DNA of 64,000 nt from Betaproteobacteria bacterium (GCA_023266235.1 JAHFRL010000007.1:15007-79006), one strand, 5' to 3'. Shown: positions 4,719-28,590, counted from the first letter of the stretch. A program made the numbers and translations. Notes: generated from the letters alone by a model not told the origin.

Positions 4719-4775
4719 GCGGATACGCGGTTGTGCACTTGGCCATCAATTTTTCGCCCGATTGACTGCGCCGCG

Positions 4776-10206: not shown

Positions 10207-10234
10207 CACTGCGCTCACGTCCGAAATTCCTGAA

Positions 10235-12034: not shown

Positions 12035-12061
12035 CGCGGTATTATAAAAGGTTAAGCGCTA

Positions 12062-12091
12062 TTGACGCGGGAAATGCTTCAATCCGATAAT
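12062..12091 (+). promoter_or_regulatory. candidate sigma70-type promoter for the plus-strand FkbM operon
   Basis: TTGACG (12062-12067), an 18-nt spacer, then GATAAT (12086-12091), about 100 nt upstream of ATG 12191 in the divergent intergenic region. Pattern match only. Confidence 0.3.
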
Positions 12092-12190
12092 GTAACCAAT
12101 TATTTCTTAAAGAAAACCTCGGGAACTGCCGAAGCGGAGCAGCGTGCTGCTCGGGAAAATTAGGTGGGGTTGCCCGTCATCATCTGATCA

Positions 12191-13036
12191 ATGAGTGTCT
12201 TCCGCGTATTGCTGTGGCCGTTCCGCCACTACGGCCGGCCGGCCGCGTCTCCGGCTGTGCCGACGGCGTTACCGGCGCTCACGCTCGAGCAATACGAAAG
12301 GCTCGCGCCGGCCCAGAAATTGCGCGAGGGCGATATCGACGTCATCTATGCAACACCGAACACGGCCACCAAGTGGCGGGTCGACAGCCTGTTTACCAAG
12401 GAGCCCGACACCATAGAATGGATACGCGGTTTCCGGCCCGGCGAAATACTGGTCGATATCGGCGCCAATGTCGGAATGTACACGATCTGGGCCGCCAAAA
12501 CGCGTGGCGTCAAGGTATATGCCTTTGAACCTGAGTCCCAGAACTATGCGCTGCTGTATAAGAACATCGTGCGCAACGACCTCGCGCAGCAGGTCGTCGC
12601 TTATTGCGTGGCGTTGTCCGATGAGACCGGTTACTCGCTGCTGCATCTGAGCGAATTCCACCTCGGAGGCTCATGCCATACCTTCGGGGAAAAAGTCGAT
12701 TACAAGCTCGAGCGGCGCGAATCGAAAGTATCCCAGGGCTGCGTTTCGACGACACTCGATCAGCTGATCGAGTCCGGCGTGGTCGCGCCGCCGGATTACA
12801 TCAAGATCGATGTCGACGGATTTGAGCATAAGGTGCTGGCCGGCTGTCGCAATGTATTGGCCAACCCTCGACTGAAATCAATTCTGGTCGAAATCAATAC
12901 CAACCTGGAGCAGCATCGCAAGATCATCACCGACTTGAAAGAACTGGGCTTCACCTATTCAGAGCAACAAGCGGCAACAGCGTTGCGCACCGAGGGCGCC
13001 TTTAAGGGTGTCGGCAATCATGTCTTCCGCCGTTGA
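12191..13036 (+). CDS. FkbM-family methyltransferase
   Basis: ILVDIGANVGMYTIWAAKTRGVKVYAFEPESQNYALLYKNI and DYIKIDVDGFEHKVLAG. ATG start. Confidence 0.8.
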   Translation: MSVFRVLLWPFRHYGRPAASPAVPTALPALTLEQYERLAPAQKLREGDIDVIYATPNTATKWRVDSLFTKEPDTIEWIRGFRPGEILVDIGANVGMYTIWAAKTRGVKVYAFEPESQNYALLYKNIVRNDLAQQVVAYCVALSDETGYSLLHLSEFHLGGSCHTFGEKVDYKLERRESKVSQGCVSTTLDQLIESGVVAPPDYIKIDVDGFEHKVLAGCRNVLANPRLKSILVEINTNLEQHRKIITDLKELGFTYSEQQAATALRTEGAFKGVGNHVFRR

Positions 13037-13820
13037 AGAACATGTGATTTATCAGATCTCCAACGCGCCGATGCGCGAGTACCCGTACCCGCATATCTAC
13101 GTCGAAAACGTATTCCCGGCAGACTTCTATGCGCAACTGCGCGCCAACTGGCCGGATTCGTCGGCGCTGGTGAGCATTCCCGAAACCGGCCGCGTCTCCA
13201 AAGGCATGTATGCGGAACGATTCGTGCTGCCGTTCAACGCCGATGGCATCATGAAGCTGCCGGAAGCACGACGCGAATTCTGGATCGAATTTGGCAATTG
13301 GTTCATGACCAGCCATTTCCTTGGTTCCATGGTCGCCAAGTTCGACCGGTATGTCAGGGAGCGGTTCGGTGATGAAGTCTATCGCTACAGTTTCGAGGCA
13401 GACTCGCTGGTGGTGCGCGACATGACGAATTACGCAATCGGGCCGCATACTGACGCACCGCACCGACTGCTGTCGATGTTGTTTTATTGCCCGGACGACG
13501 ACAGCATGAAGCATCTGGGCACGTCCGTCTACGTGCCACTCGATCGCGAGTTCCGCTGCGAGGGCGGGCCGCACTACCCGCACAATCGATTCCAGAAAGT
13601 CATGACCATGGAGTACAAGCCGAACTCCCTGTGTGCGTTTTTCAAAAATGACCGCTCATTCCACGGTGTCGAGCCGATAAGCGATCAGGATGTGCAGCGT
13701 GATGTACTGCTTTACGATATCCGCGTTGTGCCGCCGAAAAACGGCAGGCCCGTCGTCGCGACACCGCGCAGCATGGGCCTCAAAATACTGCAGCGATTAT
13801 TCGGCAGCAGTCAGAAGTGA
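13020..13820 (+). CDS. hypothetical protein, possible 2OG-Fe(II) oxygenase fold
   Basis: ORF 13008..13820. ATG 13020 overlaps the end of the FkbM gene by 17 nt. A candidate HxD...H facial triad is present: NYAIGPHTDAPHRLLSMLFY and DRSFHGVEP. The fold assignment is tentative. Confidence 0.55.
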   Translation: MSSAVEEHVIYQISNAPMREYPYPHIYVENVFPADFYAQLRANWPDSSALVSIPETGRVSKGMYAERFVLPFNADGIMKLPEARREFWIEFGNWFMTSHFLGSMVAKFDRYVRERFGDEVYRYSFEADSLVVRDMTNYAIGPHTDAPHRLLSMLFYCPDDDSMKHLGTSVYVPLDREFRCEGGPHYPHNRFQKVMTMEYKPNSLCAFFKNDRSFHGVEPISDQDVQRDVLLYDIRVVPPKNGRPVVATPRSMGLKILQRLFGSSQK

Positions 13821-13842: not shown

Positions 13843-14157
13843 ATGGCATTATTCGGATCGGTATCGGGTAAGGATGTTGACGCATTTGCCAAGACCCTCG
13901 CGCAGGAACTCGCCAAGCGCTATCCGCCAGCGCTCGATAAAGGCAGCGAGCGCAAGATCTCACAGAAACGGCTGACCAGCATACTTGAGGATACGTTCAC
14001 CCGCGCGCTGGAGTTCAAGAAACAGCACAAACTGGGCGTCTATAAGAAAGCCCGCCTCGGTAATACCTTCCGCTGGGAGTTGCAGGAAATGGGCTTCACC
14101 GAGAAATTCGTCGAAGTCGCGACCGAAGGCCTGATCGTTTACATCACCCGCAAGTAG
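13843..14157 (+). CDS. small hypothetical protein (104 aa)
   Basis: ATG 13843 is preceded by tggag at 13831-13835. MALFGSVSGKDVDAFAKTLAQELAKRYPPALDKG...VEVATEGLIVYITRK has a protein-like composition. I recognise no family. Confidence 0.5.
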   Translation: MALFGSVSGKDVDAFAKTLAQELAKRYPPALDKGSERKISQKRLTSILEDTFTRALEFKKQHKLGVYKKARLGNTFRWELQEMGFTEKFVEVATEGLIVYITRK

Positions 14158-14160
14158 CGG

Positions 14161-14201
14161 GCTGAGAGGCGGAACAGGGGCCCCCCTTGTGGGGATGTGA
14201 C
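14161..14201. repeat. short intergenic repeat, motif 2 followed by motif 1
   Basis: GCTGAGAGGCGGAACAGG (14161-14178), 7 nt, then CTTGTGGGGATGTGAC (14186-14201). It starts right after the stop of the 104-aa ORF. See the copies at 9326 and 9459. Confidence 0.5.
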
Positions 14202-14325
14202 CCTCGAAGCACGCAAGGCGACCGACACGACACCGCTCGCTTATCGCCCACACCGGTTCGGAGGTCGCGCGGGAGCTGTTGACCGGGGCGCCCGGTTGCG
14301 AGGATGCGGCGCGTGGCCGCACCGA

Positions 14326-15984
14326 CTAAGGCGCAGGCGGAGGAACGTAACCGGGAATCTTCGACGGATCGATTTCGTCGATCTGGTGCGCGTCCATGTA
14401 CTGCTGGGCGTATTTCAGATAGACCTTTTCCCACATGAACACGTCGAACAGATCCGGGTCGATGTGCCCGCCGAGCTTGAACTTGCCGAGTATCGAGAGC
14501 GACTCCGACAGCGTCTTGCCCTTCTTGTAGGGCCGGTCTTTCGCCGTGAGCGCCTCGAAGATGTCGGCGATGCCCATGCAGCGCGCCTGCACCGACATCT
14601 GCTCGCGCGTAAGTCCGCGCGGGTAGCCCTTGCCGTCCATGCGCTCGTGATGGCCTCCCGCATATTCAGGCACGTTCTTGAGATGCTTCGGCCACGGCAA
14701 GGCCTCGAGCATCTCGATCGTCACCTCGATGTGGTGGTTGATGATCTGGCGCTCCGCGGCGGTCAGCGTGCCGGCACGTATCGTCATGTTCTCGAGTTCG
14801 TCGTTGCTCAGAAAGTCGGCCTGGTTGCCCTCGATGTCGCGCCAGCGGTACTTGGTCGAGATCTGTTTCACCCGCTCCATGTCCTCCGGCTTCATGGCCT
14901 CGCCGCCAACGTTGCAGAAGCGCAGGAATTCCCGGTCTTGATTGATCTCGCGCATCCGCAGTTCAAAACCGCTCTCGATATCGTGCAGCGCCTGCCTGTC
15001 GCCTTTTTCCAGCGCCTCCAGCTTGGCTTTAAGCAGCGCGATTTCCGTGTCGCGCCTGACCACCTCGAAGCGCGTATCGAGGAGGCCGATGCGGTCGAAA
15101 ATCGTGTGCATCTTGGTCGCCTTGTCGACCACGTGCACCGGTGTCGTGACCTTGCCGCAATCATGCAGGAGCCCCGCAATCTTGAGCTCGTAGCGATCCT
15201 TGTCGCTCATCGTGAAACTCTTGAGCGGTCCGACCTGAACGTTGTTGACCGCCTCCGCCAGCAGCATCGTCAGCAGCGGCACGCGCTCGCAATGCCCGGC
15301 GGTATACGGCGACTTGTCGTCGATTGCCGCGTTGATCAGGTTGATGAACGACTCGAACAGGTTTTCGAGGTGATTGATCAGCAGCCGGTTGGTGAGCGCA
15401 ATCGCCGCCTGCGAGGCGAGCGATTCGGCAAGCCGCTGGTCGGCTTCCGAGAACGGGACGATCGCTCCCGAGACCGGGTCCTTGGCGTTGAGCAGTTGCA
15501 GCACGCCGATGATCTCGTTCTCGTGGTTCTTCATCGGCACCGTGAGAAACGATTGTGAACGGTAGCCGGTCTTCTTGTCGAAGCTCTTGGTGCCGGAAAA
15601 ATCGAACCCTTCCTGGGTATAGGCATCCGCGATGTTCACCGACTTGTCGTGGTGCACGGCGTACGCCGCAACCATCGAGGTCACCGGCTTGCCTTCCTGG
15701 TCGTGGAGCTGAAGCGGGTAAAACGGGATCTCTGCCCCGGTGGTGCCCCCCATCGCGATGCCTAGGGTGTCATTGCGCATGATCTCGAATTTCAGGGTGC
15801 GCTCCTCGGTCATGCGGTAGAGCGTTCCGCCGTCGGCGTGAGTGATCTTCTGCGCGGCAACCAGAATCGCTTCCAGCAGCCGGTTGATGTCGGTTTCTTT
15901 GGACAGCGCGACGCCGATCTGGTTGAGCTGCTCCAGCCGCTCGAACAGATTGGTGGGGTCCGGCAGGTGCTGCATCTGGTTCAT
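14326..15984 (-). CDS. GAF domain / HD-GYP domain phosphodiesterase
   Basis: The N-terminal ~190 aa look like a GAF domain (ITHADGGTLYRM...IGVLQLLNAKD). The HD motif is LLHDCGKV and the GYP motif is GGHHERMDGKGYPRGL. An unusually long stretch of about 180 aa separates HD from HHE-GYP. Confidence 0.85.
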   Translation of the reverse strand: MNQMQHLPDPTNLFERLEQLNQIGVALSKETDINRLLEAILVAAQKITHADGGTLYRMTEERTLKFEIMRNDTLGIAMGGTTGAEIPFYPLQLHDQEGKPVTSMVAAYAVHHDKSVNIADAYTQEGFDFSGTKSFDKKTGYRSQSFLTVPMKNHENEIIGVLQLLNAKDPVSGAIVPFSEADQRLAESLASQAAIALTNRLLINHLENLFESFINLINAAIDDKSPYTAGHCERVPLLTMLLAEAVNNVQVGPLKSFTMSDKDRYELKIAGLLHDCGKVTTPVHVVDKATKMHTIFDRIGLLDTRFEVVRRDTEIALLKAKLEALEKGDRQALHDIESGFELRMREINQDREFLRFCNVGGEAMKPEDMERVKQISTKYRWRDIEGNQADFLSNDELENMTIRAGTLTAAERQIINHHIEVTIEMLEALPWPKHLKNVPEYAGGHHERMDGKGYPRGLTREQMSVQARCMGIADIFEALTAKDRPYKKGKTLSESLSILGKFKLGGHIDPDLFDVFMWEKVYLKYAQQYMDAHQIDEIDPSKIPGYVPPPAP

Positions 15985-16000
15985 CGCGTCGCCAGCCCGG

Positions 16001-18382
16001 CTACTTGATGCAGACCGCGCGCACCTGGTGCATGTCGGCGACGCCCATCAGCACCTTCTCGATGCCATCCTGTTTCAGCGTGCGCATCCCGGTCTCGAGC
16101 GCAGTCGCGAACATTTCGGCCACCCGTGCGTGCTCCTGGATGTTTTTCTTGATCTGATCGGTGCCGATCAGCAACTCGTGCAGGCCGACCCGTCCCTTGT
16201 AGCCGGTGTCGCCGCAAACTTCGCAGCCGGCCTTTTCATACAGCGTGATCTCGCCTTTGTCGTTGCCGAACTCTTTGAGCCATTCCTTGAGTTGCTTGTC
16301 CTTGGCGGCCTTCAAGTCTTTCTTCCAGGTTTCAGTATGCACCATTTCGAGCGAATACTCATCCAGCAGCGCGCGCAATTCCTCCTGCGTCGCAACGTGC
16401 GGCTGCTTGCATTTGCCGCACAGGCGCTTGGCAAGACGCTGCGCCAGGATGCCGAGCAACGCGTCGGCGAAGTTGAACGGGTCCATGCCCATGTCGAGCA
16501 AGCGGATGATCGATTCCGGCGCCGAGTTGGTATGCAACGTGGCAAACACCAGGTGGCCGGTGAGCGACGCCTCAATGCCGGTCGACACGGTTTCCTTGTC
16601 GCGCATCTCACCGACCATGATGATGTCCGGGTCGGCGCGCAGAAAGGCCTTCATCGCGATCGCAAACGTCAGCCCGGCTTTCGGGTTCATCTGCACCTGG
16701 CGCAGCCCCCGCTGCGTGATCTCGACCGGGTCTTCCGCAGTCCAGATCTTGGTGTCCGGCGTGTTCAGATAGCCGAGTACCGAATGCAGCGTGGTCGTCT
16801 TGCCGGAGCCGGTCGGGCCGCACACGAAAAACAGTCCATACGGCTTCGAAACCGTGGCCTTGCACTGCTCCAGGTTGTACTTGGACAGGCCCAGCTTGTC
16901 GAGCGGAATCGGCTCGCCGGCGGCGAGAATACGCATCACGATGTCTTCGACCCCGCCCTGCGAAGGGATGGTTGCCACCCGCAGCTCGATGTCGAGGGGG
17001 CCGAACTTCTTGAACTTGATCTTGCCGTCCTGCGGCTTGCGCCGCTCCGAGATGTCGAGGTCGCACATGATCTTCAGGCGTGCCGCAATCGCGCTGCGAT
17101 AGGCTGCCGGCACCGAGATGTAATTCGCCAGCGAGCCGTCCTTGCGGAAGCGGATTTCAGTCTTGCCCTTGCCTGGATAAGGCTCGATGTGGATATCCGA
17201 TGCGCCCTGCTTGTAGGCGTCGATGATAACCTTGTTGACGAGCTTGACGACCTCGTTGTCCGAGGCCGCCGACGCGACGTCTTCCGCGCTTTCCTCGCCC
17301 TCGTCCGTCATGTCGGACAGCAAATCACCGATTGACGAACCGTCGTCGGCAACGCCTCCCGCCGCACCAGTACTTCCAAAGAACAGGTCGAGTGTCGCGT
17401 TGAACTCGCGGTTGCAGCACACCTTGTAGATGATCTTGCTTTTCGGATAGACGTTGTTGACGACCTTGGAACCGCGGATTTTTTCCGGATCGGTCGTCAG
17501 CACGAGAATGCCGTCCTTGGTGTCGTCGATCGGCATCCACATGCTGCTTTCGATGAATTCGCGGCTCATGTTCTTCATCAGATCGATCGGCTTCACCCGG
17601 TCCGCCTTGTGCGGCTCGTAGGGAACGCTGAAATACGCCGCGAGCGCTTCGCCGATCGCGTTCAACTTGACCTGAAACTCGTCGATCAGCACCGTTTCGA
17701 CGTCGAGGTTCTTGCGCCGCGCCGAGCGCGCCGCAAGCTCGAGTTCCTCGGCCGAGATCACGGCATTGGAAACCAGGTGGTCGTATTTGCCCTTGACCAT
17801 CATGGCCGGTTTCTGGCGCTGGCGGAACGCGATCGCCAGCGTCTCGCACATGTGCGCCGCGCCCTCCTCCATCAGCGGCGGGAACGGCTGGCCGGCCTTG
17901 GAGTTGATGATCTGCACCACGCCGATCAATTCCTTGCTCTGCGCATCGACCACCGGCGCCACCAGCATCTGCTTGGTGCGATAGCCGGTCTTGGTGTCGA
18001 CCTGCTTCAGGAAATTGAGGTGCGGACTGTAGGTCTTGAGTTCCTTCTCGTCGTAGACGTCGCGGATATTGATCATCTTCTTGTTCACCGCGACGCAGCC
18101 GGCAATGCTCTGCTCGGCGATCGGCAGCTTCAAATCCTTGAACGAATGGAGGCCGGTCTTGACTTTCGAGACAATCGAGGTCTTGTCCTCGCTGACGAGA
18201 TAGATCGTGAGCCGGTCGGCATTGAACAGGTCGCAGATTTCCTGGCCCAGCTCGAGCATGATCTCGTCGATATTGCTGGTCGCGTGGATCTTGTTGGTGA
18301 CCGACTGCAGGCCTTTCGAGAAATTCAGCTTCTCGGCGAGGTTATCCTGCGCTGCGGGTTTGGTTTCGAGTACGGTACTCAT
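16001..18382 (-). CDS. GspE/PilB-family (type II secretion / type IV pilus) ATPase with N-terminal GAF domain
   Basis: GAF-like N-terminus (ICDLFNADRLTIYLV...LIGVVQIINSK). A T2SSE_N-like segment follows (LVSNAVISAEELELAA...EALAAYFSVPYEP). The ATPase core has Walker A FFVCGPTGSGKTTTL, IIMVGEMRDKET, the His box ATLHTNSAPESIIRLLDMG and the tetracysteine CGKCKQ...CEVCGDTGYKGR. Confidence 0.9.
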   Translation of the reverse strand: MSTVLETKPAAQDNLAEKLNFSKGLQSVTNKIHATSNIDEIMLELGQEICDLFNADRLTIYLVSEDKTSIVSKVKTGLHSFKDLKLPIAEQSIAGCVAVNKKMINIRDVYDEKELKTYSPHLNFLKQVDTKTGYRTKQMLVAPVVDAQSKELIGVVQIINSKAGQPFPPLMEEGAAHMCETLAIAFRQRQKPAMMVKGKYDHLVSNAVISAEELELAARSARRKNLDVETVLIDEFQVKLNAIGEALAAYFSVPYEPHKADRVKPIDLMKNMSREFIESSMWMPIDDTKDGILVLTTDPEKIRGSKVVNNVYPKSKIIYKVCCNREFNATLDLFFGSTGAAGGVADDGSSIGDLLSDMTDEGEESAEDVASAASDNEVVKLVNKVIIDAYKQGASDIHIEPYPGKGKTEIRFRKDGSLANYISVPAAYRSAIAARLKIMCDLDISERRKPQDGKIKFKKFGPLDIELRVATIPSQGGVEDIVMRILAAGEPIPLDKLGLSKYNLEQCKATVSKPYGLFFVCGPTGSGKTTTLHSVLGYLNTPDTKIWTAEDPVEITQRGLRQVQMNPKAGLTFAIAMKAFLRADPDIIMVGEMRDKETVSTGIEASLTGHLVFATLHTNSAPESIIRLLDMGMDPFNFADALLGILAQRLAKRLCGKCKQPHVATQEELRALLDEYSLEMVHTETWKKDLKAAKDKQLKEWLKEFGNDKGEITLYEKAGCEVCGDTGYKGRVGLHELLIGTDQIKKNIQEHARVAEMFATALETGMRTLKQDGIEKVLMGVADMHQVRAVCIK

Positions 18383-18455
18383 GGCGGCTCATCCCCTCAT
18401 CTGGCGCTCATACCAAAAACTGCTGTGACAAATCCCATGTCAATCTGCCGGCTGC

Positions 18456-19220
18456 CTACAGTTCGAACACCTGGTTGTTTTCCAGCATGCGCGGCTGGTA
18501 GGCGCCCGCGCACTCCTGGATCTCCTGCATCGTCAGTTCGACCTCACCCGGCTTGAGGTGCGTAATATAGATCTCGGCCTTGCGTTTGAATTTGGCGAGC
18601 TCTTCAGCCAGCATGCTCGGACACAGATGCTTCGACGCGACCGCCAGATTCTTCTCGCGATTGCAGAATGCGGTCTCAATGATCAGAAAGCGCAGGTTGT
18701 CGATCCGGTTGACTTCCTGCCATAACGGATCATTGGTGGTGGTGTCGCCGGTGAATACGAGGCTGGCGCGGCCCGAATCGATGCGATAGCCGACCGCCGG
18801 CACCACATGGTTGGCGGGCAACGGCGTCAATTTGCGGCCGTTGACATCGACGGTCTTGCCGAGCGCAACCGCCGCGTAGCGCAAATACGGCTTCTGCGCG
18901 TCCGGTATCTGCGTGAAATCCGGCCACAGCTTCCAGTTGAACAGGTGCTGGCGCAGGATTTCGAGCGTCGGCTCGATTGCATGCACCGTTATCGGCTGGT
19001 TGCGCATCCAGCCCACGGTATCGACGAGGAATGGAATCGAGGTCACGTGATCGAGGTGCGAGTGCGTGACAAACACATGATCGATGCGGGAAAGCGCATC
19101 GATGCTCAAGTCCCCGACCCCGGTACCGGCGTCGATCAGGACGTCGTGGTCGAGCAGCATCGAGGTGGTGCGCAAATCGCCGCTGATGCCGCCGCTGCAA
19201 CCGAGTATCCTGAGTTTCAT
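18456..19220 (-). CDS. class II 3',5'-cyclic-nucleotide phosphodiesterase (metallo-beta-lactamase fold)
   Basis: MKLRILGCSGGISGDLRTTSMLL and VFVTHSHLDHV (the HxHLDH signature of class II cAMP phosphodiesterases). It starts 11 nt after the cyclase gene. Confidence 0.8.
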   Translation of the reverse strand: MKLRILGCSGGISGDLRTTSMLLDHDVLIDAGTGVGDLSIDALSRIDHVFVTHSHLDHVTSIPFLVDTVGWMRNQPITVHAIEPTLEILRQHLFNWKLWPDFTQIPDAQKPYLRYAAVALGKTVDVNGRKLTPLPANHVVPAVGYRIDSGRASLVFTGDTTTNDPLWQEVNRIDNLRFLIIETAFCNREKNLAVASKHLCPSMLAEELAKFKRKAEIYITHLKPGEVELTMQEIQECAGAYQPRMLENNQVFEL

Positions 19221-19231
19221 CGTCTTGGTCG

Positions 19232-21490
19232 TTATTTCGTCTTGAACGTAAACGCGCCATCCCAGTCCTTGCCGGGCGGATTGGCGCGCAGGTAAGCGAT
19301 CCGCTCCACAAACGTATGGCTGTAGAGCAGGTGGCCGGCCACCTGCTTTTGCAAATTAAACAGCTGCAACTCCGCCTGGTCCCAGTCCTGCGCGCGATAC
19401 AACCGCAAAAACTGCGCATACAGCTTGATTTCGTCGAGTTTCGCCTTCTCGACCTGCCCCTGCAGCCCGAAGGGCTCGTAAATCGCCACCGCCTCGTCCT
19501 TGCCCTTGACCCGCACCCGGTCGAGCTCGCGGAACACGACTTCAGGCACCGCGTTCCTGGTGCCCTCGCCGGCTATGATATCAGCGCCGTACTCCTTTGT
19601 GATGCCCTCCAGCCGCGATCCGAGGTTTACGGCGTCTCCCATTACCGTATAAGCCCGGCGGATCTGCGAACCCATGTCGCCGACGCGCATCACGCCGGAG
19701 TTAACGCCGACGCCGATTTTGAACGTCGGCCAGCCCTTGGCCTTGAATTTCTCGTTGAGTATCTTGGCCGTTTTCTGCATGTCCATGGCTGCCAGCATGG
19801 CGTTTCTGGCGTGCGCGGGATCGCGCACCGGCGCCCCCCAGAACGCCATGATCGCGTCACCGATGTACTTGTCCAGCGTCCCGCGGTGCCCTTCGCGGAT
19901 CACCAGGCTCATGGTCGTCAGGTAATCGTTGATGTAGACGGAGAGATCCTCCGGCGACAGGCTTTCGGATATGGTGGTGAACCCGCGCACGTCCGAGAAC
20001 AACACCGAAAGTTCCTCGGCGCGTGGCGCCATATTGAACTCGGCCGGGTTCCTCGCCATCTCATCGACCAGTTCGGGCGGTACGTACTGGCCGAACAGGC
20101 CGGTGATCTGGTTCTTGCCGCGTGCTTCGACGAAATACCCATATGACATGTTGAGCGCGAACAACAGCGCAATCATTACCAGCCCAGACGCAAGCGGCAG
20201 CACCATATTGCCGAGATGGAACACGATCAGATTGCCGAACACCACCATAAATAACACCGCCACCGTGACCAGCAAAGATTTGAGTGGATTCAATAGCGGG
20301 AGCAACAGGGCCATCGCCGCTCCGGCCAGCAACAGCAACACGAATTCCGCGCCGACGACATACGGCGGTTTCTGCTTGATATTGCGGTCGAGCATGCCGG
20401 CGATCATATTGGCGTGGATTTCCACCCCCGGATAGACCTCTTCGACCGGTGTCGCGCGCAAGTCGAGCAGGCCCGGCGCCGTGGTGCCGACCAGCACGAT
20501 CTTGCCTTTCAAGTCCGCAACATCGGCGCGTTCGCTCATGACGTCGCTCACTGAAATGTAACTGAAACTTTTCTGTTTGCCGCGATAGGGGATCAGCGCG
20601 GTCACCCTTTCATCGACCGGGATGCGCAGCGGCCCGACTTCGAGCCACTCGAGACCCGAGTAGCTCCGCGACCAGATCTTGTCCGACGGGTAGCCCGGCA
20701 CGATATTCGGCCCGCCGATTATCATGCGCACGATCGCGAGCGACAGCGGTTCGTAATAAGTACCGCCAAACTCCGCCAGCATCGGCACGCGCCGCAGGAT
20801 GCCGTCAGGGTCGGGATCCAGGCTGAAATGCCCGGCACTCGCTGCGCTTTTCTGCAGTTCGGGCAGGTTCGCGGTATAGCCGGGGAATGACGCAAAGTCG
20901 ATGTTCTTGGCGCCGAATGTCCCGGCCGGCAGTACTGGCGCCGGCAACACCCCTTTCTTGCTGCCTTCGCCCTCGAAGCGCGTGAACGTGTAACCGAGTA
21001 CCACCGCCCGGTTACGCATGTGTTCGGCGAAAATCTGGTCGTACTCGAGCTGCGGCTGCAACTGTTTGAGTGTCGCCTGAAAACCCGCCACGTCCTTCAG
21101 CTCTTTTTGTGCGAGCTGCTGCAGCACGCGCAGTCCCGAACTCTCGTCGCGCTCGGCGAACACAATGTCGAAACCGACGATCGCGATCTGGTAGCGGTCG
21201 AACAGCTTGTCGAGCAACAGCGCCAGACGGTCGCGCGGCCACGGCCAGCGGCCCTCGCCGCCTTTCTCTTTCTCGGCGAGGCTTTTTTCGTCGATATCGA
21301 GGATGACGATACGCGGGTCGACGGTGCGCGGCATCGTCATCGCGAGCCGCGTATCGTAGACGACGGCCTCGAGCCGGTTTACCAGCGGGATCTGGAATGT
21401 CCAGCCGCCAATTCCCCACTTTGCGGCGTGCGCGAGAAACGCCAGCACCAGGGCAAGGCCCAAGCCGATGCGAACGATGTTTTTATTCAA
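19232..21490 (-). CDS. CHASE2 sensor domain / class III adenylate-guanylate cyclase
   Basis: N-terminal TM helix, a periplasmic CHASE2-like ~330 aa, then three TM helices. The cyclase core has LSVLFSDVRGFTTISE and KYIGDAIMAFWGAP. I chose TTG 21490 as the start because AGGAGG lies 4 nt upstream. The track start is TTG 21529. Confidence 0.85.
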   Translation of the reverse strand: MNKNIVRIGLGLALVLAFLAHAAKWGIGGWTFQIPLVNRLEAVVYDTRLAMTMPRTVDPRIVILDIDEKSLAEKEKGGEGRWPWPRDRLALLLDKLFDRYQIAIVGFDIVFAERDESSGLRVLQQLAQKELKDVAGFQATLKQLQPQLEYDQIFAEHMRNRAVVLGYTFTRFEGEGSKKGVLPAPVLPAGTFGAKNIDFASFPGYTANLPELQKSAASAGHFSLDPDPDGILRRVPMLAEFGGTYYEPLSLAIVRMIIGGPNIVPGYPSDKIWSRSYSGLEWLEVGPLRIPVDERVTALIPYRGKQKSFSYISVSDVMSERADVADLKGKIVLVGTTAPGLLDLRATPVEEVYPGVEIHANMIAGMLDRNIKQKPPYVVGAEFVLLLLAGAAMALLLPLLNPLKSLLVTVAVLFMVVFGNLIVFHLGNMVLPLASGLVMIALLFALNMSYGYFVEARGKNQITGLFGQYVPPELVDEMARNPAEFNMAPRAEELSVLFSDVRGFTTISESLSPEDLSVYINDYLTTMSLVIREGHRGTLDKYIGDAIMAFWGAPVRDPAHARNAMLAAMDMQKTAKILNEKFKAKGWPTFKIGVGVNSGVMRVGDMGSQIRRAYTVMGDAVNLGSRLEGITKEYGADIIAGEGTRNAVPEVVFRELDRVRVKGKDEAVAIYEPFGLQGQVEKAKLDEIKLYAQFLRLYRAQDWDQAELQLFNLQKQVAGHLLYSHTFVERIAYLRANPPGKDWDGAFTFKTK

Positions 21491-21737
21491 CCCGCCTCCT
21501 GTAGTGCTGCCGGCTACCCGGCGCGACAAGAGCCGGTTCGGGCCGATAATGGGGCAAGTCCTGTGCCAGACACGGGGCAGCCCGCGTCAGGCATAACCGC
21601 ACCGTGGACGCCTGGCGCTGCACGGCAGGCTTGACCGGCGCTGGGGACGCGCTGTGACGCCGGCCATGAAATCATTTTGATCGATGATTGAACAGGAATT
21701 GTGGCCGGCAGGCTCTGCCCGGACGGAGCGCTACGCC

Positions 21738-22475
21738 CTAGCCGTTCTTGAGGAAGAACTCCATTTTCACGCCCGCCAGTTCGATCACATCATGATCGTT
21801 GAGCTGGTGCGCCTGGGCATCGAGCGCCTTGCCGTTGACGATCGGGAAATTGGCGCCTTCGACATGGGTGATGAAATGGCCGTGCGGCCGGCGTGTAATC
21901 ACCGCCACCTGCACGCCGGGCTTGCCGAGCGTGGTGAGGTTCTTGGTGAGCGCGAGTTCCCTGCCCGCCGACGGCCCGGTCAAAATCTGGACCGCCGCCA
22001 ATTTTTCCGCTTGCTTGGCGGCTGCCGCGACTGCGTGCGGCGGCGGGCCTTGCGTCGTCGTCGTCGCCGCCGGACTGACCTGGGTATCGCCGAAGCCGCC
22101 TGGAGTTGCCTCCATTGCCGCCTTTGCCATCGGCGCGCGTAATACCATGGTTTTCTCGAAATCGGCCACCGAGGCCTGGCCGGCCGCCTGCTCGCTGACG
22201 TATTTCAACTTGTACTTGCCGATCTCGATCACGTCGTTGCTCTGCAGGATGTGCTTCTTGACCGGATTGCCGTTGACGAGCGTGCCGTTGGTGCTGCCGA
22301 GGTCCTCCAGGAACGAATCGTTGAGTATCGTCACGATCAATGCGTGCTCGCCGCTGACCGCCAGATTGTCGATCTGGATGTCGTTGTGCGCTTTGCGTCC
22401 GATGGTGAACCGCTCCTTGTCGAGCGGAACCTCCCTGATAACCGCGTTATCCAGACTCATGATCAACTTCGCCAT
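21738..22475 (-). CDS. protein with two FHA domains
   Basis: The N-terminal FHA has FTIGRKAHNDIQIDNLAVSGEHALI and STNGTLVNG. The C-terminal FHA-like half has LTTLGKPGVQVAVITRRPHGHFITHVEG and NDHDVIELAGVKMEF. A Pro/Ala/Thr linker joins the two halves. Confidence 0.85.
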   Translation of the reverse strand: MAKLIMSLDNAVIREVPLDKERFTIGRKAHNDIQIDNLAVSGEHALIVTILNDSFLEDLGSTNGTLVNGNPVKKHILQSNDVIEIGKYKLKYVSEQAAGQASVADFEKTMVLRAPMAKAAMEATPGGFGDTQVSPAATTTTQGPPPHAVAAAAKQAEKLAAVQILTGPSAGRELALTKNLTTLGKPGVQVAVITRRPHGHFITHVEGANFPIVNGKALDAQAHQLNDHDVIELAGVKMEFFLKNG

Positions 22476-22496
22476 GGCAGTATCCCTGTAACCGTA

Positions 22497-23327
22497 TTAT
22501 CTGAACCAAGCCTTGAATTTGGCAAACCAGCCCGTCGGCGCCCCGAAGTCTTCAAGCACCCGCACCAGGATCACTGAAATGTTGTCGCGCCCGCCGCTGT
22601 CGTTGGCCTGCTGCACCAGCTGCTTTGCCGCCAGCGGCAGGTTCGCCTGCAGCGTGGCCAAGGTGGCGTGGATCTCATCATCCACGACCATATCGCTCAA
22701 CCCGTCCGAGCATAGCAGGTATATATCCCCCGGCTCCACATCATAGGTGTGAACTTCGGTCTCGACCTCGGGATCGATGCCGACCGCGCGCGTCACCAGA
22801 TTCTTGTTCTGCGAGTGGCGCGCCTGCTCTTTGCTTATCATGCCGCTGTCGATTTGTTCCTGCAACAGCGAGTGGTCGCGCGTGATCTGCTCGAACTCAT
22901 CCTGGCGCAGCCGATACAGGCGCGAGTCGCCAATGTGGCCGGTCGTCATGCGGTTGTCGTAAAACAACGCCACTACCAGGGTGGTGCCCATGCCCGCGTA
23001 TTGCGGCTGGCTTTGGGCGGCCTGATAAATCGCGGCATTGGCTTTGGCCGAATTCTCCTTGATCAGCTTGACTGCCAGCGGCTCGCCCGCAGAGCCGTTG
23101 ATTTCGTGCGGCTCGTGTGCTTCGAGCGCCCGCCTCATTTCGGCAGTCAGCATGGCCACCGCGATGCCGCTCGCGACTTCACCCGCATTGTAGCCGCCCA
23201 TGCCGTCGGCAAGCACCGCCAGGCCGATTTCGGCATCAGTTGCAATGCTGTCCTCGTTATGCGAGCGCACCATTCCGGGATCAGTGGCGGTTACAACTTC
23301 AAGCACGGTGCCGAGATTAGCCATCAT
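22497..23327 (-). CDS. PP2C-family Ser/Thr protein phosphatase
   Basis: MVRSHNEDS, LADGMGGYNAGEVAS and GGRDNISVILV. It starts 5 nt after the kinase stop. Confidence 0.9.
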   Translation of the reverse strand: MMANLGTVLEVVTATDPGMVRSHNEDSIATDAEIGLAVLADGMGGYNAGEVASGIAVAMLTAEMRRALEAHEPHEINGSAGEPLAVKLIKENSAKANAAIYQAAQSQPQYAGMGTTLVVALFYDNRMTTGHIGDSRLYRLRQDEFEQITRDHSLLQEQIDSGMISKEQARHSQNKNLVTRAVGIDPEVETEVHTYDVEPGDIYLLCSDGLSDMVVDDEIHATLATLQANLPLAAKQLVQQANDSGGRDNISVILVRVLEDFGAPTGWFAKFKAWFR

Positions 23328-23332
23328 GGTGA

Positions 23333-25912
23333 TTACAGCCCGATGTCGACCACGTCTTGCTTCGCCCCGGCGCCGCCCCCGCCCACGCCCGCTGCGCAGG
23401 CCTTGATCGCCTGCGCCATTTCCTCGCCGGTCTGGTAGCGCGCCTCGGGCTGCTTGGCCAGCGCCTTGTTGATGATATCAACCAGGCACGGCGGCAATTT
23501 GGCGTTGTAAGTCAGGATATCGACGTGCGGCTCGTTGGCGATCTTGAACATCAGCTGCGCCATCGAATCGCCCTGAAATGGCAGTTTTCCGCACGCGAGT
23601 TGATACAGCGTCACGCCGAGCGAAAAAAGGTCGGAGCGACCTTCGATTTTCTTGCCGGCGAGCTGCTCGGGCGACATGTAGCTCGGCGTACCGAGCACCA
23701 TGCCGGTCTTGGTCTTGGACGAATCGGTGATGCGCGCGATGCCGAAGTCAGTGACCTTGACGGTGTCGCTCTCGAGCTCGTACATGATGTTGGCGGGCTT
23801 GATGTCGCGGTGCACGACGCTGTTCGTGTGGGCGTAGGTCAACGCTTCGGCGACGCGCGCGATGATGCTCATCACTTTCGGCAGCGGCAGCAGGTTGTCC
23901 GGCTTGATGAACGGCGTGAGGTCCTTGCCTTTCAGGAACTCCATCGCGATGAACGCAAGATCGTGCTCTTCGCCGGCGTCGAAAATCGTAACAATATGGG
24001 GGTGGTTCAGGCGGCCGGCGGTTTCGGCCTCGCGGAAGAAGCGGTCCTTGACATCCTGCAGCTCGTCGGCCTCGAACTCCTGCGACAGCGCCATGGTCTT
24101 GATCGCCACCACGCGGCCGATTTTCGGGTCCTTGCCCAGATACACGACGCCCATCGCGCCCTTGCCGAGTTCTTTTTCGACCTGGTAGCGGCCGAGCATC
24201 GGTTTTTCGACGCCGCCACCGGGCATGATCACGGTGCCGCCGGGATGGCTGCCACCGCCGCCGAGTATGACGGTTTCCGACATCGCCTTGGCGCGTCCGA
24301 CCCGCTCCGCGATGTCCCTGAACTTCGGATTATTCTCGGCGATGTAGCGGAACGCATTTTCCGCTTTGTTGAACTGGCGCTTGCGCTCGAAATCGAGCGC
24401 CAGGTTATAAACCAGATCGAGCACCGAATCGTCGGGCGGCAGCTTGCGGAAATAGTCGAACGCCGTGTCGAGCTGACCCTGGCCCTGGTAGCCGAGGCCG
24501 AGCATGCGGTGGCTTTGCGCAAGGTCGACGTCCGAACGGGCCTTGCTTTTTTCGGTGACAATAAAATGCTTGGAGACGAGCGCTAAATGCCCGATCAGCA
24601 ACAACGTCGCCGGCAGCATGAGCTGTACCCAGATCGCGCTGGTCGTCATCAACACGAAATGCACGACTAGCAGAAGCACGAAAACTCCAGCCGAAATCAC
24701 CAGTGCCTGGGTTGCCTTAAGGCGCGGCAGCAGCGCAATCAGGTAGGCGGCGATCAATAAAAAAACTAGCAATTCGACCCAGTAAGCCCACGCTGGCGTG
24801 ACGAAAAAATGCTCGGAGAGGATAGAAGACACCGAGTGTGCAAGCACCAGCACGGGCGGCATCGCCGCAGAGACGGGGGTAACCGTCGCGCTGCCGAGAC
24901 CCGCGGCTGTGGGGCCGATCAGTACGATTTTGTTTTCGTACTTGCTGACCGGGATCTTGCCGTTGATCACATCATAGAAAGAGTCAATGGTAAATGCAGC
25001 GCGACCCTCGCGATCCTTGTAGAAATAGGTGTACATCCGGGTCAACGGGTCCGTCGTAATGTTCAGTTTTCCCAGCGTCACTTTTTCACCGGGCTGGATC
25101 TTGATGTCTTCCAGGGTCAGGTTGAGGCTTTTCGCCGCGATCATCATCGACAGAGACGGAAAAGTCTTGTCGAAATTGAGCAGCACCAAGGGTTCGGTGC
25201 GGGTGCCGCCATCAACGTCGGGCGTCGCATTGAGGTGGCCAAGAGCGGCGGCGGACTTGCCGATAATCTCGATAGGATAATCTACCCTTTTCGTGAGCAG
25301 CACGAATTCCTCCGCGCCTTTCGCGACTTTCGGCAGAGCGTTCTTGGCGACATACTCTGGCAATGGCTTGTCTGGATTGCCGCGCGGCTCGCCGAGTTCG
25401 AACAACATCATCGGCACGACGTTGCCGGCCCGCGTGAAACTGTCGGCAAGTTTGCGGTCGACGTTTAGTGTTTCCTCGGCCTCTTTAAGCACCGTGACAA
25501 ATGGCCCCATCGGACTGCTGGCCGCTACTCCGGCCTGATCGGCGGGCGCGCTGTTTATCGCGGCGAGATCGAGAAGCTTGGTGATATAAACGTAACCGGG
25601 GTCGACTTGAGGTTCGGAGAATAGAACGGTGTATGCGATAACCTTGGCTTTGGCAGCGGCCAGCGTGTCGGTCATCTTAGCAAGCACTTCGCGCGACCAC
25701 GGCCACCGACCGATCTTGTCGAGACTGTCGGCATCGATCGCAATGATCGCAACCTTGTCGGACGGTGTGCGTGACGTAGCGACGACGCCAAGGTCGTACG
25801 CCTTGCGCTCCAGACTCGGGATGAGGTCGCTCGCGCGGTTGAACAGCGCGACCACAAGGACAACGACGACCCCGAGAAACCAGTCGGATTTCCAAAAAGT
25901 CAAATTTTTCAT
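23333..25912 (-). CDS. CHASE2 sensor domain / Hanks-type Ser/Thr protein kinase
   Basis: N-terminal TM helix, CHASE2-like ~340 aa, TM helices, then a short TPR-like linker. The kinase core has LGKGAMGVVYLGKD, VVHRDIKPANIM, VTDFGIARI and GTPSYMSPEQ. Confidence 0.9.
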   Translation of the reverse strand: MKNLTFWKSDWFLGVVVVLVVALFNRASDLIPSLERKAYDLGVVATSRTPSDKVAIIAIDADSLDKIGRWPWSREVLAKMTDTLAAAKAKVIAYTVLFSEPQVDPGYVYITKLLDLAAINSAPADQAGVAASSPMGPFVTVLKEAEETLNVDRKLADSFTRAGNVVPMMLFELGEPRGNPDKPLPEYVAKNALPKVAKGAEEFVLLTKRVDYPIEIIGKSAAALGHLNATPDVDGGTRTEPLVLLNFDKTFPSLSMMIAAKSLNLTLEDIKIQPGEKVTLGKLNITTDPLTRMYTYFYKDREGRAAFTIDSFYDVINGKIPVSKYENKIVLIGPTAAGLGSATVTPVSAAMPPVLVLAHSVSSILSEHFFVTPAWAYWVELLVFLLIAAYLIALLPRLKATQALVISAGVFVLLLVVHFVLMTTSAIWVQLMLPATLLLIGHLALVSKHFIVTEKSKARSDVDLAQSHRMLGLGYQGQGQLDTAFDYFRKLPPDDSVLDLVYNLALDFERKRQFNKAENAFRYIAENNPKFRDIAERVGRAKAMSETVILGGGGSHPGGTVIMPGGGVEKPMLGRYQVEKELGKGAMGVVYLGKDPKIGRVVAIKTMALSQEFEADELQDVKDRFFREAETAGRLNHPHIVTIFDAGEEHDLAFIAMEFLKGKDLTPFIKPDNLLPLPKVMSIIARVAEALTYAHTNSVVHRDIKPANIMYELESDTVKVTDFGIARITDSSKTKTGMVLGTPSYMSPEQLAGKKIEGRSDLFSLGVTLYQLACGKLPFQGDSMAQLMFKIANEPHVDILTYNAKLPPCLVDIINKALAKQPEARYQTGEEMAQAIKACAAGVGGGGAGAKQDVVDIGL

Positions 25913-26238: not shown

Positions 26239-27171
26239 TCAGCCGCCGAGCACGCTGCCAGCCTTGATGCCGCCTGCCTGCGCCAGCTCCCCGCCGCTCA
26301 CCTTTTTGCCATCCCCGAACCTGGCCTTCAGCACTTCGATCAAGCCGCCTTGGGCCGTGATCTTGAAGCTTTGCGCCGTGACGTCAGTGACCTCGCCGAT
26401 CTTCCCGGGCACGTCCGCAAAACGCCGGAAAACGGCCTTGCGCGCGTCAAAAAGCTGTAACTTTTTGCCGCTGAGCGTCGTCCATGCGCCCGGCGCCGGG
26501 TTGCACCCCCGGATCAGGTTGTAGACATGGTCGATGGGCTTGGCCCAGTCTATCCGCGCCTCCCCGGCGCGGCACCAGCCCTCGTAACTCGCCTGCGACT
26601 CATCCTGCACCGTCTCCCGGTGTTTTCCCTTTAACACGAGATCGGCGGCCTCAAGCATGGCCTGTACGCCCAGCGGGAACAGGCGCTCGAAATAGACGGT
26701 GCCCAGCGTGTCGTCGGGGCTGATGGGCGTCTTCTTCTGCAGGATCACTGCGCCTTCATCCAGCCCGTCCGAGGGACGGAAAATGGTCAGGCCCGTCTCC
26801 GTGTCGCCTTTGATGATCGGCCAGTTGATCGAACTCGGGCCGCGATACTTCGGCAGCAGTGACGGGTGATACTGGATGGTGCCGTGTTTGGGTATGTTGA
26901 CGAATTCCTGCGGTGCGAACTGCAGCACGAAAGCCATGATGCCGATGTCGGCGTTAGCGTCCTGCATGGCCTGCGCCGCTTCCCGCGCCCGTAGCGACTT
27001 GAACTGGTGAACCTGCAGCCCCGTTTCCTGCGCCGCGAGACGCAACGCATCCGGCCGCGCGCCTTCCTTCTCGGGCGCGCAGAACACGGCTGCAACCTCG
27101 TCGCCGCGCGCGAGGAAGGCCTCGAACACGGCCTTGCCGTAGTCCTGCTGGCCGATGATTGCGATTTTCAT
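26239..27171 (-). CDS. stand-alone formyltransferase resembling the N-terminal (hydrolase/formyl-transfer) domain of 10-formyltetrahydrofolate dehydrogenase
   Basis: At 310 aa it matches the length I remember for that domain. MKIAIIGQQDYGKAVFEAFLARGDEVAAVFCAPEK, IQYHPSLLPKYRGPSSINW and SDGLDEGAVILQK align by eye to the ALDH1L1 N-terminal domain as I remember it (MKIAVIGQS..G..V.....GHEVVGVFT.PDK; YHPSLLPRHRGASAINW; DDGLDTGDLLLQK). A C-terminal Fmt-like subdomain is present. Confidence 0.75.
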   Translation of the reverse strand: MKIAIIGQQDYGKAVFEAFLARGDEVAAVFCAPEKEGARPDALRLAAQETGLQVHQFKSLRAREAAQAMQDANADIGIMAFVLQFAPQEFVNIPKHGTIQYHPSLLPKYRGPSSINWPIIKGDTETGLTIFRPSDGLDEGAVILQKKTPISPDDTLGTVYFERLFPLGVQAMLEAADLVLKGKHRETVQDESQASYEGWCRAGEARIDWAKPIDHVYNLIRGCNPAPGAWTTLSGKKLQLFDARKAVFRRFADVPGKIGEVTDVTAQSFKITAQGGLIEVLKARFGDGKKVSGGELAQAGGIKAGSVLGG

Positions 27172-27257
27172 GATTGTTACTTTCTTCGAAACAGGTGAGG
27201 CGGTAGTCGAAAGAGCAAATCAGCGCGTGAGTTCTGCGCCTCTCGCCTTACGGGCCG

Positions 27258-28529: not shown

Positions 28530-28590
28530 TCTGATCTCCAAAAATGCTTCGGCAGATAGATGGCTACCTGCTCTCGCTCAACTGTTTGAC

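Follow-up and report, generated by a model that had tools for sequence, protein, structure and literature searches.

Type IV pilus extension motors are gated by cyclic di-GMP (c-di-GMP) via MshEN domains. Cyclic AMP (cAMP), to our knowledge, controls pili only via transcription (Vfr/CRP). The H1 type VI secretion system (T6SS) of P. aeruginosa encodes a sensor-bearing membrane Hanks kinase, a PP2C phosphatase and an FHA protein (PpkA-PppA-Fha1) together, by the ATPase of the machine. CyaD1 and CyaD2 of Sinorhizobium are CHASE2-transmembrane-class III cyclases, and ETTSVFR is the autoregulatory, auto-binding phosphosite of the FHA proteins GarA and OdhI. The c-di-GMP motif of MshEN is a tandem 24-residue RLGxx(L/V/I)(L/V/I)xxG(L/V/I)(L/V/I)xxxxLxxxLxxQ with a 5-residue joint (Wang et al. 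2016). Tlr0485 is a cAMP-activated GAF-HD-GYP c-di-GMP phosphodiesterase (PMC10124867; 10.1101/2021.11.05.467447), and Leptospira proteins of the LIC_11189 type contain an insertion within a GAF-linked HD-GYP domain (PMC12943098). Here, we analysed a 64-kb stretch of a Betaproteobacteria bacterium genome (GCA_023266235.1 JAHFRL010000007.1:15007-79006, hereafter the window), in which an earlier note had pointed to an island of seven signalling genes that includes an ATPase of the pilus and secretion motor class. We propose, with modest confidence, that the island is a regulatory module for a type IVa pilus, built around a cAMP-gated, phosphorylation-tuned, GAF-fused ATPase of the PilB subfamily, and that it would also lower c-di-GMP.

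A literature search found no description of GAF-PilB/GspE ATPases or of the seven-gene set, in agreement with the earlier suggestion that no characterised system has this composition. Each part belongs to a known family. Two elements appear to be new: a cyclic-mononucleotide (cNMP) GAF domain that would take over from c-di-GMP sensing in a motor of the pilus type, and the grouping of this motor, beside pilA, with an HD-GYP enzyme, a kinase/PP2C/FHA triad and a putative private circuit for cAMP. Positions are given in window coordinates; L-numbers designate fetched related genome loci or metagenome contigs.

The seven-gene block and its conservation

The island consists of seven minus-strand open reading frames (ORFs), encoding a CHASE2-Ser/Thr kinase, a PP2C phosphatase, an FHA protein, a CHASE2-class III cyclase, a class II cyclic-nucleotide phosphodiesterase, the GAF-fused ATPase and a GAF-HD-GYP protein (Table 1). 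The gene order, spacing and domain content described in the earlier note were all reproduced from ORF coordinates and Pfam matches. In gene order, the gaps measure 5, 21, 208, 11, 73 and 16 nt. The start of the cyclase lies 39 nt later in public gene calls, made on contigs that match the window at 99.8-99.98% identity; the third gap is then 247 nt, which accounts for the "about 250 nt" given previously. Sequence inspection found unbroken catalytic motifs in the kinase, PP2C, cyclase, phosphodiesterase, ATPase and HD-GYP proteins.

To sample the family, one genome per species was scanned with a family-specific alignment of the ATPase N-terminus. This gave at least 589 confirmed stretches, in which some genes may be counted twice. 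The best 80 of these were analysed, and synteny was counted in the 44 loci with enough flanking sequence. All of the best 80 come from betaproteobacterial metagenome-assembled genomes (MAGs), including Nitrosomonadales, Gallionellaceae, Rhodocyclaceae and Sterolibacteriaceae; the hosts are soil and groundwater Betaproteobacteria represented by MAGs only. Among metagenome proteins with a Betaproteobacteria or Burkholderiales annotation, hundreds match the ATPase at 79-99% identity.

When the window proteins were mapped onto these species-level loci, all seven genes were colinear in 34 of the 44. The incomplete blocks lack the kinase (3 loci), the phosphodiesterase (2), both CHASE2 proteins (2), the cyclase and HD-GYP (1) or the phosphodiesterase and HD-GYP (1), and one retains only the ATPase and HD-GYP. 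Gene by gene, the kinase is present in 37 loci, PP2C in 43, the cyclase in 40, the phosphodiesterase in 40 and HD-GYP in 42; in 42 of the 44, ATPase and HD-GYP form a pair. The ATPase is the best-conserved gene of the island, with a median identity of 75%.

Signalling genes are abundant in these genomes, and the seven could in principle stand together by chance, without functional coupling. This explanation, to which we attach practically no probability, is refuted by the colinearity in 34 loci; the spacing of 5-73 nt within two sub-blocks and the paralogy of the GAF and CHASE2 domains within the block also speak against it. The arrangement is far beyond chance. Absence of the synteny from other genomes had been named as the finding that would undo the earlier proposal; instead, the block is a conserved unit.

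The GAF-fused ATPase and its relatives

Pfam assigns a GAF, an MshEN and a T2SSE domain (6.8e-112) to the ATPase. It carries the Walker A motif, Asp box, Walker B motif, His box and tetracysteine Zn site by which the PilB/GspE class is recognized, and shares this class and these motifs with MshE of V. cholerae, PilB of M. xanthus and PilF of T. thermophilus. Across 70 orthologues, conservation of these motifs is 95% or higher. The ATPase scores 483.7 bits against the NCBIfam model of PilB (TIGR02538; cut-off 675.65) and 437.2 bits against that of GspE (TIGR02533; cut-off 630.25). Both cut-offs are missed; hence, by curated criteria, it is neither PilB nor GspE. Its nearest solved relatives in the PDB are PilB of M. 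xanthus and Geobacter and PilF of Thermus, with EpsE/GspE coming after these, and no gsp gene was found in the window or in the related loci. The label "GspE-type" used in the earlier note is imprecise, since the PilB score exceeds the GspE score and neither cut-off is reached. Public annotation of the family is itself inconsistent (GspE/PulE, TadA, "putative phytochrome sensor").

The MshEN-type N-domain had been missed in the earlier note. MshE, PilB and PilF have in common with the island ATPase an N-terminal 24-5-24 helical scaffold followed by an alpha/beta MshEN part, and the reading of a second messenger at the N-terminus, which is a prediction in the present case. The island ATPase retains the hydrophobic positions and the 24-5-24 spacing. 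However, unlike in those motors, the key residues are replaced in both motifs: RLG becomes GKY, RIG becomes DVE, and the Gly and both Gln are gone. A relaxed form of the motif of Wang et al. (2016) was found in 0 of 70 betaproteobacterial orthologues and 0 of 10 distant relatives, that is, in 0 of 80 family members. As a positive control, a non-GAF MshEN-T2SSE protein encoded next to a family member in L082 fits the motif. The c-di-GMP-binding MshEN motif is lost in every family member tested.

A second difference from MshE, PilB and PilF, besides the scores below the PilB and GspE equivalog cut-offs, is the cNMP-type GAF domain in front. It matches the cAMP-bound GAF domains of Anabaena CyaB2 (1ykd, E 7.9e-30, both GAFs aligned) and also PDE2 GAF-B. 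Its signature blocks (ADRxT, IAG, NI.D.Y, D..TGYRT and GV.Q..N) are conserved in all orthologues examined, and are unbroken even in variant loci without an adjacent cyclase or phosphodiesterase. The GAF domain of the HD-GYP protein is a paralogue of that of the ATPase (28% identity, E 4e-10), and matches PDE5 GAF-A (E 3e-16), PDE2, CyaB2 and PmGH. The assignment of both GAF domains to the cNMP-binding subfamily (CyaB1/2, PDE2/5/6/10/11 type), as predicted binders, is supported by these matches.

More widely, the N-terminal 372 residues of the ATPase retrieve 246 proteins at E<=1e-30 from a library with one representative per 50%-identity cluster, and GAF-ATPase relatives are also present in Desulfobacterales, Thermodesulfovibrionales/Nitrobium and Giesbergeria. 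A profile search for distant N-termini returned mostly fragments or split genes, largely from Desulfobacterales, of which three contexts were examined. In the ATPase domain, identity to the Desulfobacterales members is 57-58%, against 47% to the non-GAF neighbour in L082, where a GAF-ATPase and a canonical MshEN ATPase adjoin. This suggests that the GAF-ATPases form one separate orthologous clade across phyla. In the three Desulfobacterales contigs, the GAF-ATPase stands alone among housekeeping genes, so that the seven-gene island would be a betaproteobacterial elaboration. These Desulfobacterales GAF-ATPases are each split in two adjacent calls (L081 10001-12318, L082 10001-12310, L083 10001-12317). 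The splits may be frameshifts or assembly errors, and perhaps a selection artefact of a search that favours fragments.

Pilins downstream of the block and other neighbours

A scan of the related loci for N-termini of type IV prepilins recovered canonical major pilins of the type IVa class. Downstream sequence of 6 kb or more is available for 44 loci; in 26 of these, a type IVa pilin gene follows HD-GYP, and without exception it is encoded on the same strand. Where 1 kb or more could be read past HD-GYP (51 loci), the pilin is found within 700 nt in 15. Pfam Pilin and N_methyl matches confirmed the assignment in L069 and L165. In L060, the pilin is followed by a TfpO-like Wzy_C gene, and in L016, where HD-GYP is missing, the ATPase gene still adjoins the pilin. 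Loci without a pilin in the 7-kb flank usually have this flank filled by TPR/GT41 genes; no pilin was seen within 7 kb in L021, L031 and L075.

The population from which the window derives follows the same layout. A metagenome scan with the left-most TPR protein returned mostly paralogues of at most 60% identity, together with about a dozen contigs holding island genes and pilins. In L086, L095 and L157, the island is followed by a pair of genes for a 270-aa protein and an FkbM methyltransferase, a TPR array and then a pilin 11-15 kb downstream. Contig L165 (1-9796), retrieved with the left-most complete TPR protein of the window, overlaps window positions 1-2660 at 99.96% identity and reaches 7.1 kb further. 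This extension contains three more TPR genes, a gene for a TylF-type methyltransferase and two tandem pilin genes (138 and 137 aa). In the window's own population, the first pilin thus starts 5.6 kb beyond the left edge, on the island strand, and 19.9 kb separate it from the stop codon of the HD-GYP gene upstream.

The earlier note reported GspF/PilC, secretin, pilin, Tad and T6SS genes as absent from the window; Pfam analysis of all major ORFs and the pilin-motif scan agree, within the 64 kb. What it made of this absence, an orphan ATPase with no visible machine in a self-contained signal-to-mechanical module, is not supported in view of the pilins found downstream in relatives and past the left edge. 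With pilins beyond this edge and a cargo array of 0 to ~20 kb in between, the orphan look is largely an effect of the window boundary.

Judged by eye, the tandem pilins of L165 are about 70% identical, and they have a C-terminal disulfide-loop region in common; pilin genes duplicated in tandem were also seen in L012, L018, L022, L025, L035 and L043. The array between island and pilins varies from 0 to ~20 kb among relatives, and holds ORFs without a Pfam match in addition to the TPR, GT41, FkbM and TylF genes, which may represent a pilin-modification cassette. One ORF of 270 aa (13008-13820, plus strand) has no Pfam or NCBIfam match; it recurs at 51-72% identity beside the FkbM gene, on the opposite strand, in many loci.

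The position of the ATPase gene next to pilins recalls the pilA/pilBCD layout, and it might be argued that the GAF-ATPase is the sole housekeeping PilB, standing beside pilA as in Pseudomonas, with six ordinary regulators merely clustered around it and only the added sensor domain being new. PilB is the best match of the ATPase in both NCBIfam and the PDB, and no second PilB-like gene was found in any fetched betaproteobacterial locus, within flanks on the 7-10-kb scale. We nevertheless judge this account unlikely, since the ATPase falls about 190 bits short of the PilB equivalog cut-off, no pilC or pilD is adjacent, the GAF-ATPase clade is kept across phyla in a manner suggesting a separate family, and in L082 the GAF-ATPase has a canonical MshEN ATPase as its neighbour.

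Even less probable, in our opinion, is a role outside pili, either in another secretion or uptake machine or as a regulatory ATPase, in which case the pilin adjacency would be an inherited gene order and the motor an orphan after all. Such a role is consistent with the lack of a linked platform, secretin or prepilin peptidase gene in the window, with the lone genes of the distant family members, with the 20 kb that separate the pilins in the window lineage and with the three loci devoid of a pilin within 7 kb. However, the pilin adjacency holds across lineages at 60-83% N-terminal identity. It also outlasts the loss of the kinase, cyclase or HD-GYP gene and the insertion of 0-20 kb of cargo, with strand always conserved, and all PilB/GspE-class ATPases that we know of work on type IV filament machines. 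A regulatory module for a type IVa pilus is thus the interpretation that we retain.

Table 1 Features of the seven-gene block and of its surroundings (window coordinates unless a contig or residue numbers are given)
Feature	Position	Strand	Size, motifs or basis
CHASE2-TM (transmembrane)-Ser/Thr kinase	23333-25912	-	859 aa; Pfam
Kinase CHASE2	residues 17-388; 24749-25864	-	Pfam
Kinase domain	residues 576-829; 23426-24187	-	Pfam
Kinase motifs	G-loop 583-591; VAIK 602-605; HRD 701-708; DFG 722-724	-	sequence
PP2C Ser/Thr phosphatase	22497-23327	-	276 aa; Pfam
Two-domain FHA protein	21738-22475	-	245 aa; Pfam and hhalign
Canonical FHA domain	residues 1-95	-	GR, SGEH, NG motifs
Invariant E107-K-T109-M-V-L-R113 in FHA linker	22137-22157	-	orthologue conservation
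Degenerate FHA-like C-terminal domain	residues 160-245; 21741-21998	-	hhalign
Long intergenic gap	21530-21737	-	208 nt from TTG ORF start, 247 nt from called start
CHASE2-TM-class III cyclase, predicted adenylate type	19232-21529	-	765 aa from TTG; 752 aa in public calls
Cyclase CHASE2	residues 46-403	-	Pfam
Cyclase catalytic domain	residues 502-680; 19490-20026	-	Pfam
Class II cyclic-nucleotide phosphodiesterase, metallo-beta-lactamase fold	18456-19220	-	254 aa; Pfam
GAF-(degenerate MshEN)-PilB-family hexameric ATPase	16001-18382	-	793 aa; Pfam, NCBIfam, PDB
ATPase GAF	residues 38-185; 17828-18271	-	Pfam
ATPase 24-5-24 helical region without c-di-GMP motif	residues 198-250; 17633-17791	-	motif test
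ATPase MshEN alpha/beta part	residues 253-340	-	Pfam
ATPase T2SSE domain	residues 373-787	-	Pfam
ATPase motifs	Walker A GPTGSGKT 522-529; Walker B DPDIIMVGEMRD 584-595; His box FATLHTN 613-619; CGKC/CEVC 655/720	-	sequence
GAF-HD-GYP protein, predicted phosphodiesterase	14326-15984	-	552 aa; Pfam
HD-GYP protein GAF	residues 30-199; 15388-15897	-	Pfam
HD-GYP motifs	HD 274-275 (LHDCGK 273-278); HHERMDGKGYP 445-455	-	sequence
HD-GYP insertion, ~108 aa relative to PmGH	residues 293-400; 14785-15108	-	between HD and HHERMDGKGYP motifs
Variable spacer array: TPR, TPR-GT41, FkbM methyltransferase, unannotated genes	1-13820	.	Pfam
Array genes	TPR-GT41 7390-9234; FkbM methyltransferase 3087-4718, 12191-13036; TylF methyltransferase beyond left edge	.	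Pfam
Tandem type IVa pilins, outside window	L165 8282-8698 and 8867-9280; window-equivalent ~-5621 to -6619	-	Pfam Pilin and N_methyl

The gap between the FHA and cyclase genes is the sole long intergenic gap of the island and is probably the boundary of two transcription units, kinase-PP2C-FHA and cyclase-phosphodiesterase-ATPase-HD-GYP. A promoter and terminator scan was uninformative (8 sigma-70 matches for 3.9 expected, 13 terminators for 12.4 expected). Rfam gave no match in the window or in three pilin-bearing loci, hence no riboswitch is visible. A 120-aa ORF (13960-14322) was considered as an eighth gene and rejected: it has no Pfam match, its composition is that of a spurious high-GC ORF, and it is uncalled in public annotations.

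According to Pfam analysis of all major ORFs, the rest of the window holds oxalate/formate metabolism genes, Tct transporter genes and the TPR/GT41/FkbM array. The oxalate/formate catabolism cluster flanks the island (26239-30318 and 41283-42959) and comprises formyltransferase, frc, oxc and formate-tetrahydrofolate ligase genes; roughly half of the related loci have frc and the formyltransferase gene as conserved neighbours upstream. At a distance of 4.5 kb upstream from the island, a Crp-like gene (30466-31155, plus strand; cNMP_binding and HTH_Crp_2) diverges from the gene for oxalyl-CoA decarboxylase; it is conserved beside oxc in L016 and L061. Its product could be another cAMP reader or simply an oxalate regulator. 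A 959-aa ORF (47383-50262, plus strand) has no Pfam match at E<=1e-5, and ORFs of 300-370 aa at 40190-41200, 43066-43989, 45968-46903 and 51225-52340 have no Pfam match either.

Partner proteins and proposed mechanism

The cyclase combines CHASE2 (E 1.9e-56) and Guanylate_cyc (E 7.4e-19) Pfam domains. The metal-binding Asp residues are found in FSDVRGFT and IGDA, the substrate-specifying pair is the Lys of DKYIGD and the Thr of YTVMGD, and the Asn and Arg of VNLGSRLE are present. Among solved structures, CyaB, an adenylate cyclase of P. aeruginosa, is closest (3r5g, E 1.6e-30); it has the same Lys/Thr pair, and FSDVRGFT, DKYIGDA and YTVMGDAVNLGSRLE match it position by position. Adenylate cyclases top the list of solved matches, with guanylate cyclases only lower. 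By these residues, the protein is predicted to be a class III (IIIb) adenylate cyclase. As in the P. aeruginosa CyaB-cAMP-Vfr/Pil-Chp pathway, a membrane-anchored class IIIb cyclase would thus be tied to type IV pili; however, CyaB has a MASE2 sensor in place of CHASE2, its cAMP acts via the transcription factor Vfr whereas the receptors predicted here are the motor ATPase and the HD-GYP protein, and CpdA takes the place of the dedicated class II phosphodiesterase. The architecture is that of Sinorhizobium CyaD1/CyaD2, with the difference that the island cyclase is paired with a CHASE2 kinase paralogue, its own phosphodiesterase and GAF effectors.

The phosphodiesterase matches Lactamase_B_2 and PDEase_II in Pfam, the latter at E 8.9e-13 and 48.5 bits for a cut-off of 23.7 (PF02112). 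It contains HSHLDH at 53-58 (the HxHLDH of class II enzymes) and FNWKLWPD at 94-101 (FNxxxWPD), and yeast PDE1 (4ojv) aligns across both motifs. The metallo-beta-lactamase fold, the HxHLDH motif and the Pfam score are those of class II cyclic-nucleotide phosphodiesterases; the score against NCBIfam NF041851 is below its cut-off (44.8 vs 400). Orthologues have precomputed Pfam matches to Apyc1 and PDEase_II. These structure and family matches, and the paralogy of the two GAF domains, sustain the earlier description of a cyclic-mononucleotide writer, an eraser and two GAF readers side by side.

Additional cNMP readers occur in variant loci, and we count them as support for the cAMP reading. An eighth gene, encoding a cNMP_binding-Rhodanese protein, stands between the phosphodiesterase and ATPase genes in L031 (8871-10001), L072 (8631-10001), L075 (8819-9910) and L080 (8682-9755). 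L057 has neither CHASE2 protein; downstream of its pilin, it encodes a fusion of a soluble Ser/Thr kinase and a cNMP_binding domain (18486-19778), which would tie cNMP sensing directly to phosphorylation.

A cyclase, possible effectors and a phosphodiesterase that could provide self-immunity also bring to mind an anti-phage system of the Pycsar/CBASS type. PADLOC gave a weak match of the cyclase to PycC (E 1.5e-24) and matches of the kinase to PD-T4-6 models, and the phosphodiesterase family overlaps Pfam Apyc1. These PADLOC matches are generic domain matches, no model was matched by the other five proteins (including the phosphodiesterase, ATPase, HD-GYP and FHA proteins), and the defence reading, which we find very improbable, is rejected on this ground. 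In addition, the cyclase combines the adenylate-type Lys/Thr pair with an extracytoplasmic CHASE2 domain, effectors of the membrane-disrupting or NADase kind are absent, and the chromosomal site is stable, with the same flanking genes in many species, unlike defence islands.

The HD-GYP protein has GAF and HD/HD_5 Pfam domains (HD_5, E 7.8e-40), and its closest solved relatives are PmGH (4mcw, E 3.3e-29) and then V-cGAP3 (5z7c). It fits the PmGH type of GAF-HD-GYP c-di-GMP phosphodiesterases, which is its predicted activity. Tlr0485 of Thermosynechococcus and PmGH of Persephonella have the same architecture, with intact HD and HHExxDGxGYP motifs. In contrast to both, the island protein has an insertion of ~108 aa, missed in the earlier note and reminiscent of that in LIC_11189-type proteins (PMC12943098), and its gene is in a probable operon with a presumed cAMP source, a presumed cAMP sink and a pilus-type ATPase.

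Upstream, the kinase carries CHASE2 (E 2.5e-51) and Pkinase (E 1.2e-55) Pfam domains. Its CHASE2 domain is a paralogue of that of the cyclase (27% identity, E 2e-19), so that the two proteins do have the same sensor type, as first noticed. PP2C, which starts 5 nt past the kinase stop, matches PP2C_2 (E 3e-16), has unbroken DGMGG, GDSR, SDGL and GGRDN motifs and passes the cut-off of the NCBIfam Stp1/IreP family (255.8 bits vs 230). An intact kinase, an intact PP2C and an FHA domain with GR, SGEH and NG motifs, separated by 5 and 21 nt, make up a kinase/PP2C/FHA triad.

The FHA protein had been described as double-FHA. Pfam detects one FHA domain only (E 4.6e-22), which is canonical; the second is at most a degenerate FHA-like domain. 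The C-terminal 86 residues are conserved and align with the protein's own N-terminal FHA profile (hhalign probability 86.8%, E 4e-6), hhalign being the sole source for this second domain, and we call it degenerate because the SxxH stretch is missing. An AlphaFold2 model has a mean pLDDT of 53.6; both halves are all-beta, at a confidence too low to add support. The FHA domain matches the OdhI and FhaB models of NCBIfam (E 1e-15 to 6e-17), with scores that fall short of the equivalog cut-offs. Within an otherwise variable linker, EKTMVLR is invariant; its +3 position relative to the phosphothreonine is a Leu, which suits FHA binding. Like GarA and OdhI of Actinobacteria, the island protein is small, and has an invariant E-x-T-x-V-(L/F)-R outside the FHA domain that resembles ETTSVFR. 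The motif is C-terminal to the FHA domain here, N-terminal in GarA/OdhI, and the partners encoded nearby are signalling and pilus genes, not enzymes of the tricarboxylic acid cycle. We infer that the FHA protein acts as a phospho-switch.

The triad also resembles PpkA-PppA-Fha1, in that a Hanks kinase, a PP2C and an FHA protein are grouped beside a machine ATPase. It differs by the CHASE2 sensor, by the second, degenerate FHA-like domain and by an ATPase of the PilB type, not ClpV. No T6SS gene was found in the window, and the TagH model gives 41.3 bits for a cut-off of 120.

On this basis, a mechanism can be proposed. The CHASE2 adenylate cyclase would convert an envelope or extracellular cue into cAMP, and the class II phosphodiesterase would reset the signal. 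By binding the GAF domain of the ATPase, cAMP would control either how active this motor is or how it docks on the pilus platform. It would also bind the paralogous GAF domain of the HD-GYP protein, which is presumably co-transcribed, and stimulate c-di-GMP hydrolysis, as in Tlr0485, so that a rise in cAMP would switch the motor on and bring c-di-GMP down together. The second CHASE2 sensor would drive the Hanks-type kinase, opposed by PP2C. The likely substrate of the kinase would be Thr109 in the invariant EKTMVLR; its phosphorylation would act as a GarA/OdhI-like switch altering the partners of the FHA protein, plausibly the ATPase or the cyclase. The output would be type IVa pilus extension.

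A broader evolutionary scenario is more tentative, and we regard it as possible rather than probable. A cross-phylum subfamily of PilB-type ATPases may have swapped a c-di-GMP input, lost with the MshEN motif, for a cAMP input, gained with the GAF domain. In a large clade of uncultured Betaproteobacteria, a private unit made of an envelope-sensing cyclase and its phosphodiesterase, a cAMP-activated HD-GYP enzyme and a CHASE2-kinase/PP2C/FHA switch would then decide on type IVa pilus extension.

Several points weigh against the pilus module. PilC, PilD, PilM-Q and PilT genes are present neither in the window nor in any fetched locus, so that the sole link to a pilus is pilin synteny. The loci compared for this synteny are phylogenetically related, some 20 kb of other genes part island and pilins in the window lineage, and no pilin, cyclase or HD-GYP gene lies near the GAF-ATPase in the three Desulfobacterales contigs. 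The ATPase itself does not reach the curated PilB cut-off. Ligands, activities and phenotypes are predictions read from sequence only: cAMP versus cGMP selectivity of the GAF domain is not readable in this way, and the substrate of the HD-GYP protein could be cyclic GMP-AMP rather than c-di-GMP, V-cGAP3 being the second-best match. Finally, the hosts are uncultured.

The case shows how the edge of a window can make a motor look orphaned. If the proposal is true, the island would connect cAMP to the motor directly, without transcription factors of the Vfr/CRP type, and would provide a new control point for pili, unexpected and directly testable by simple biochemistry. It would also offer a compact, testable case of cross-talk between cAMP and c-di-GMP and of local second-messenger signalling.

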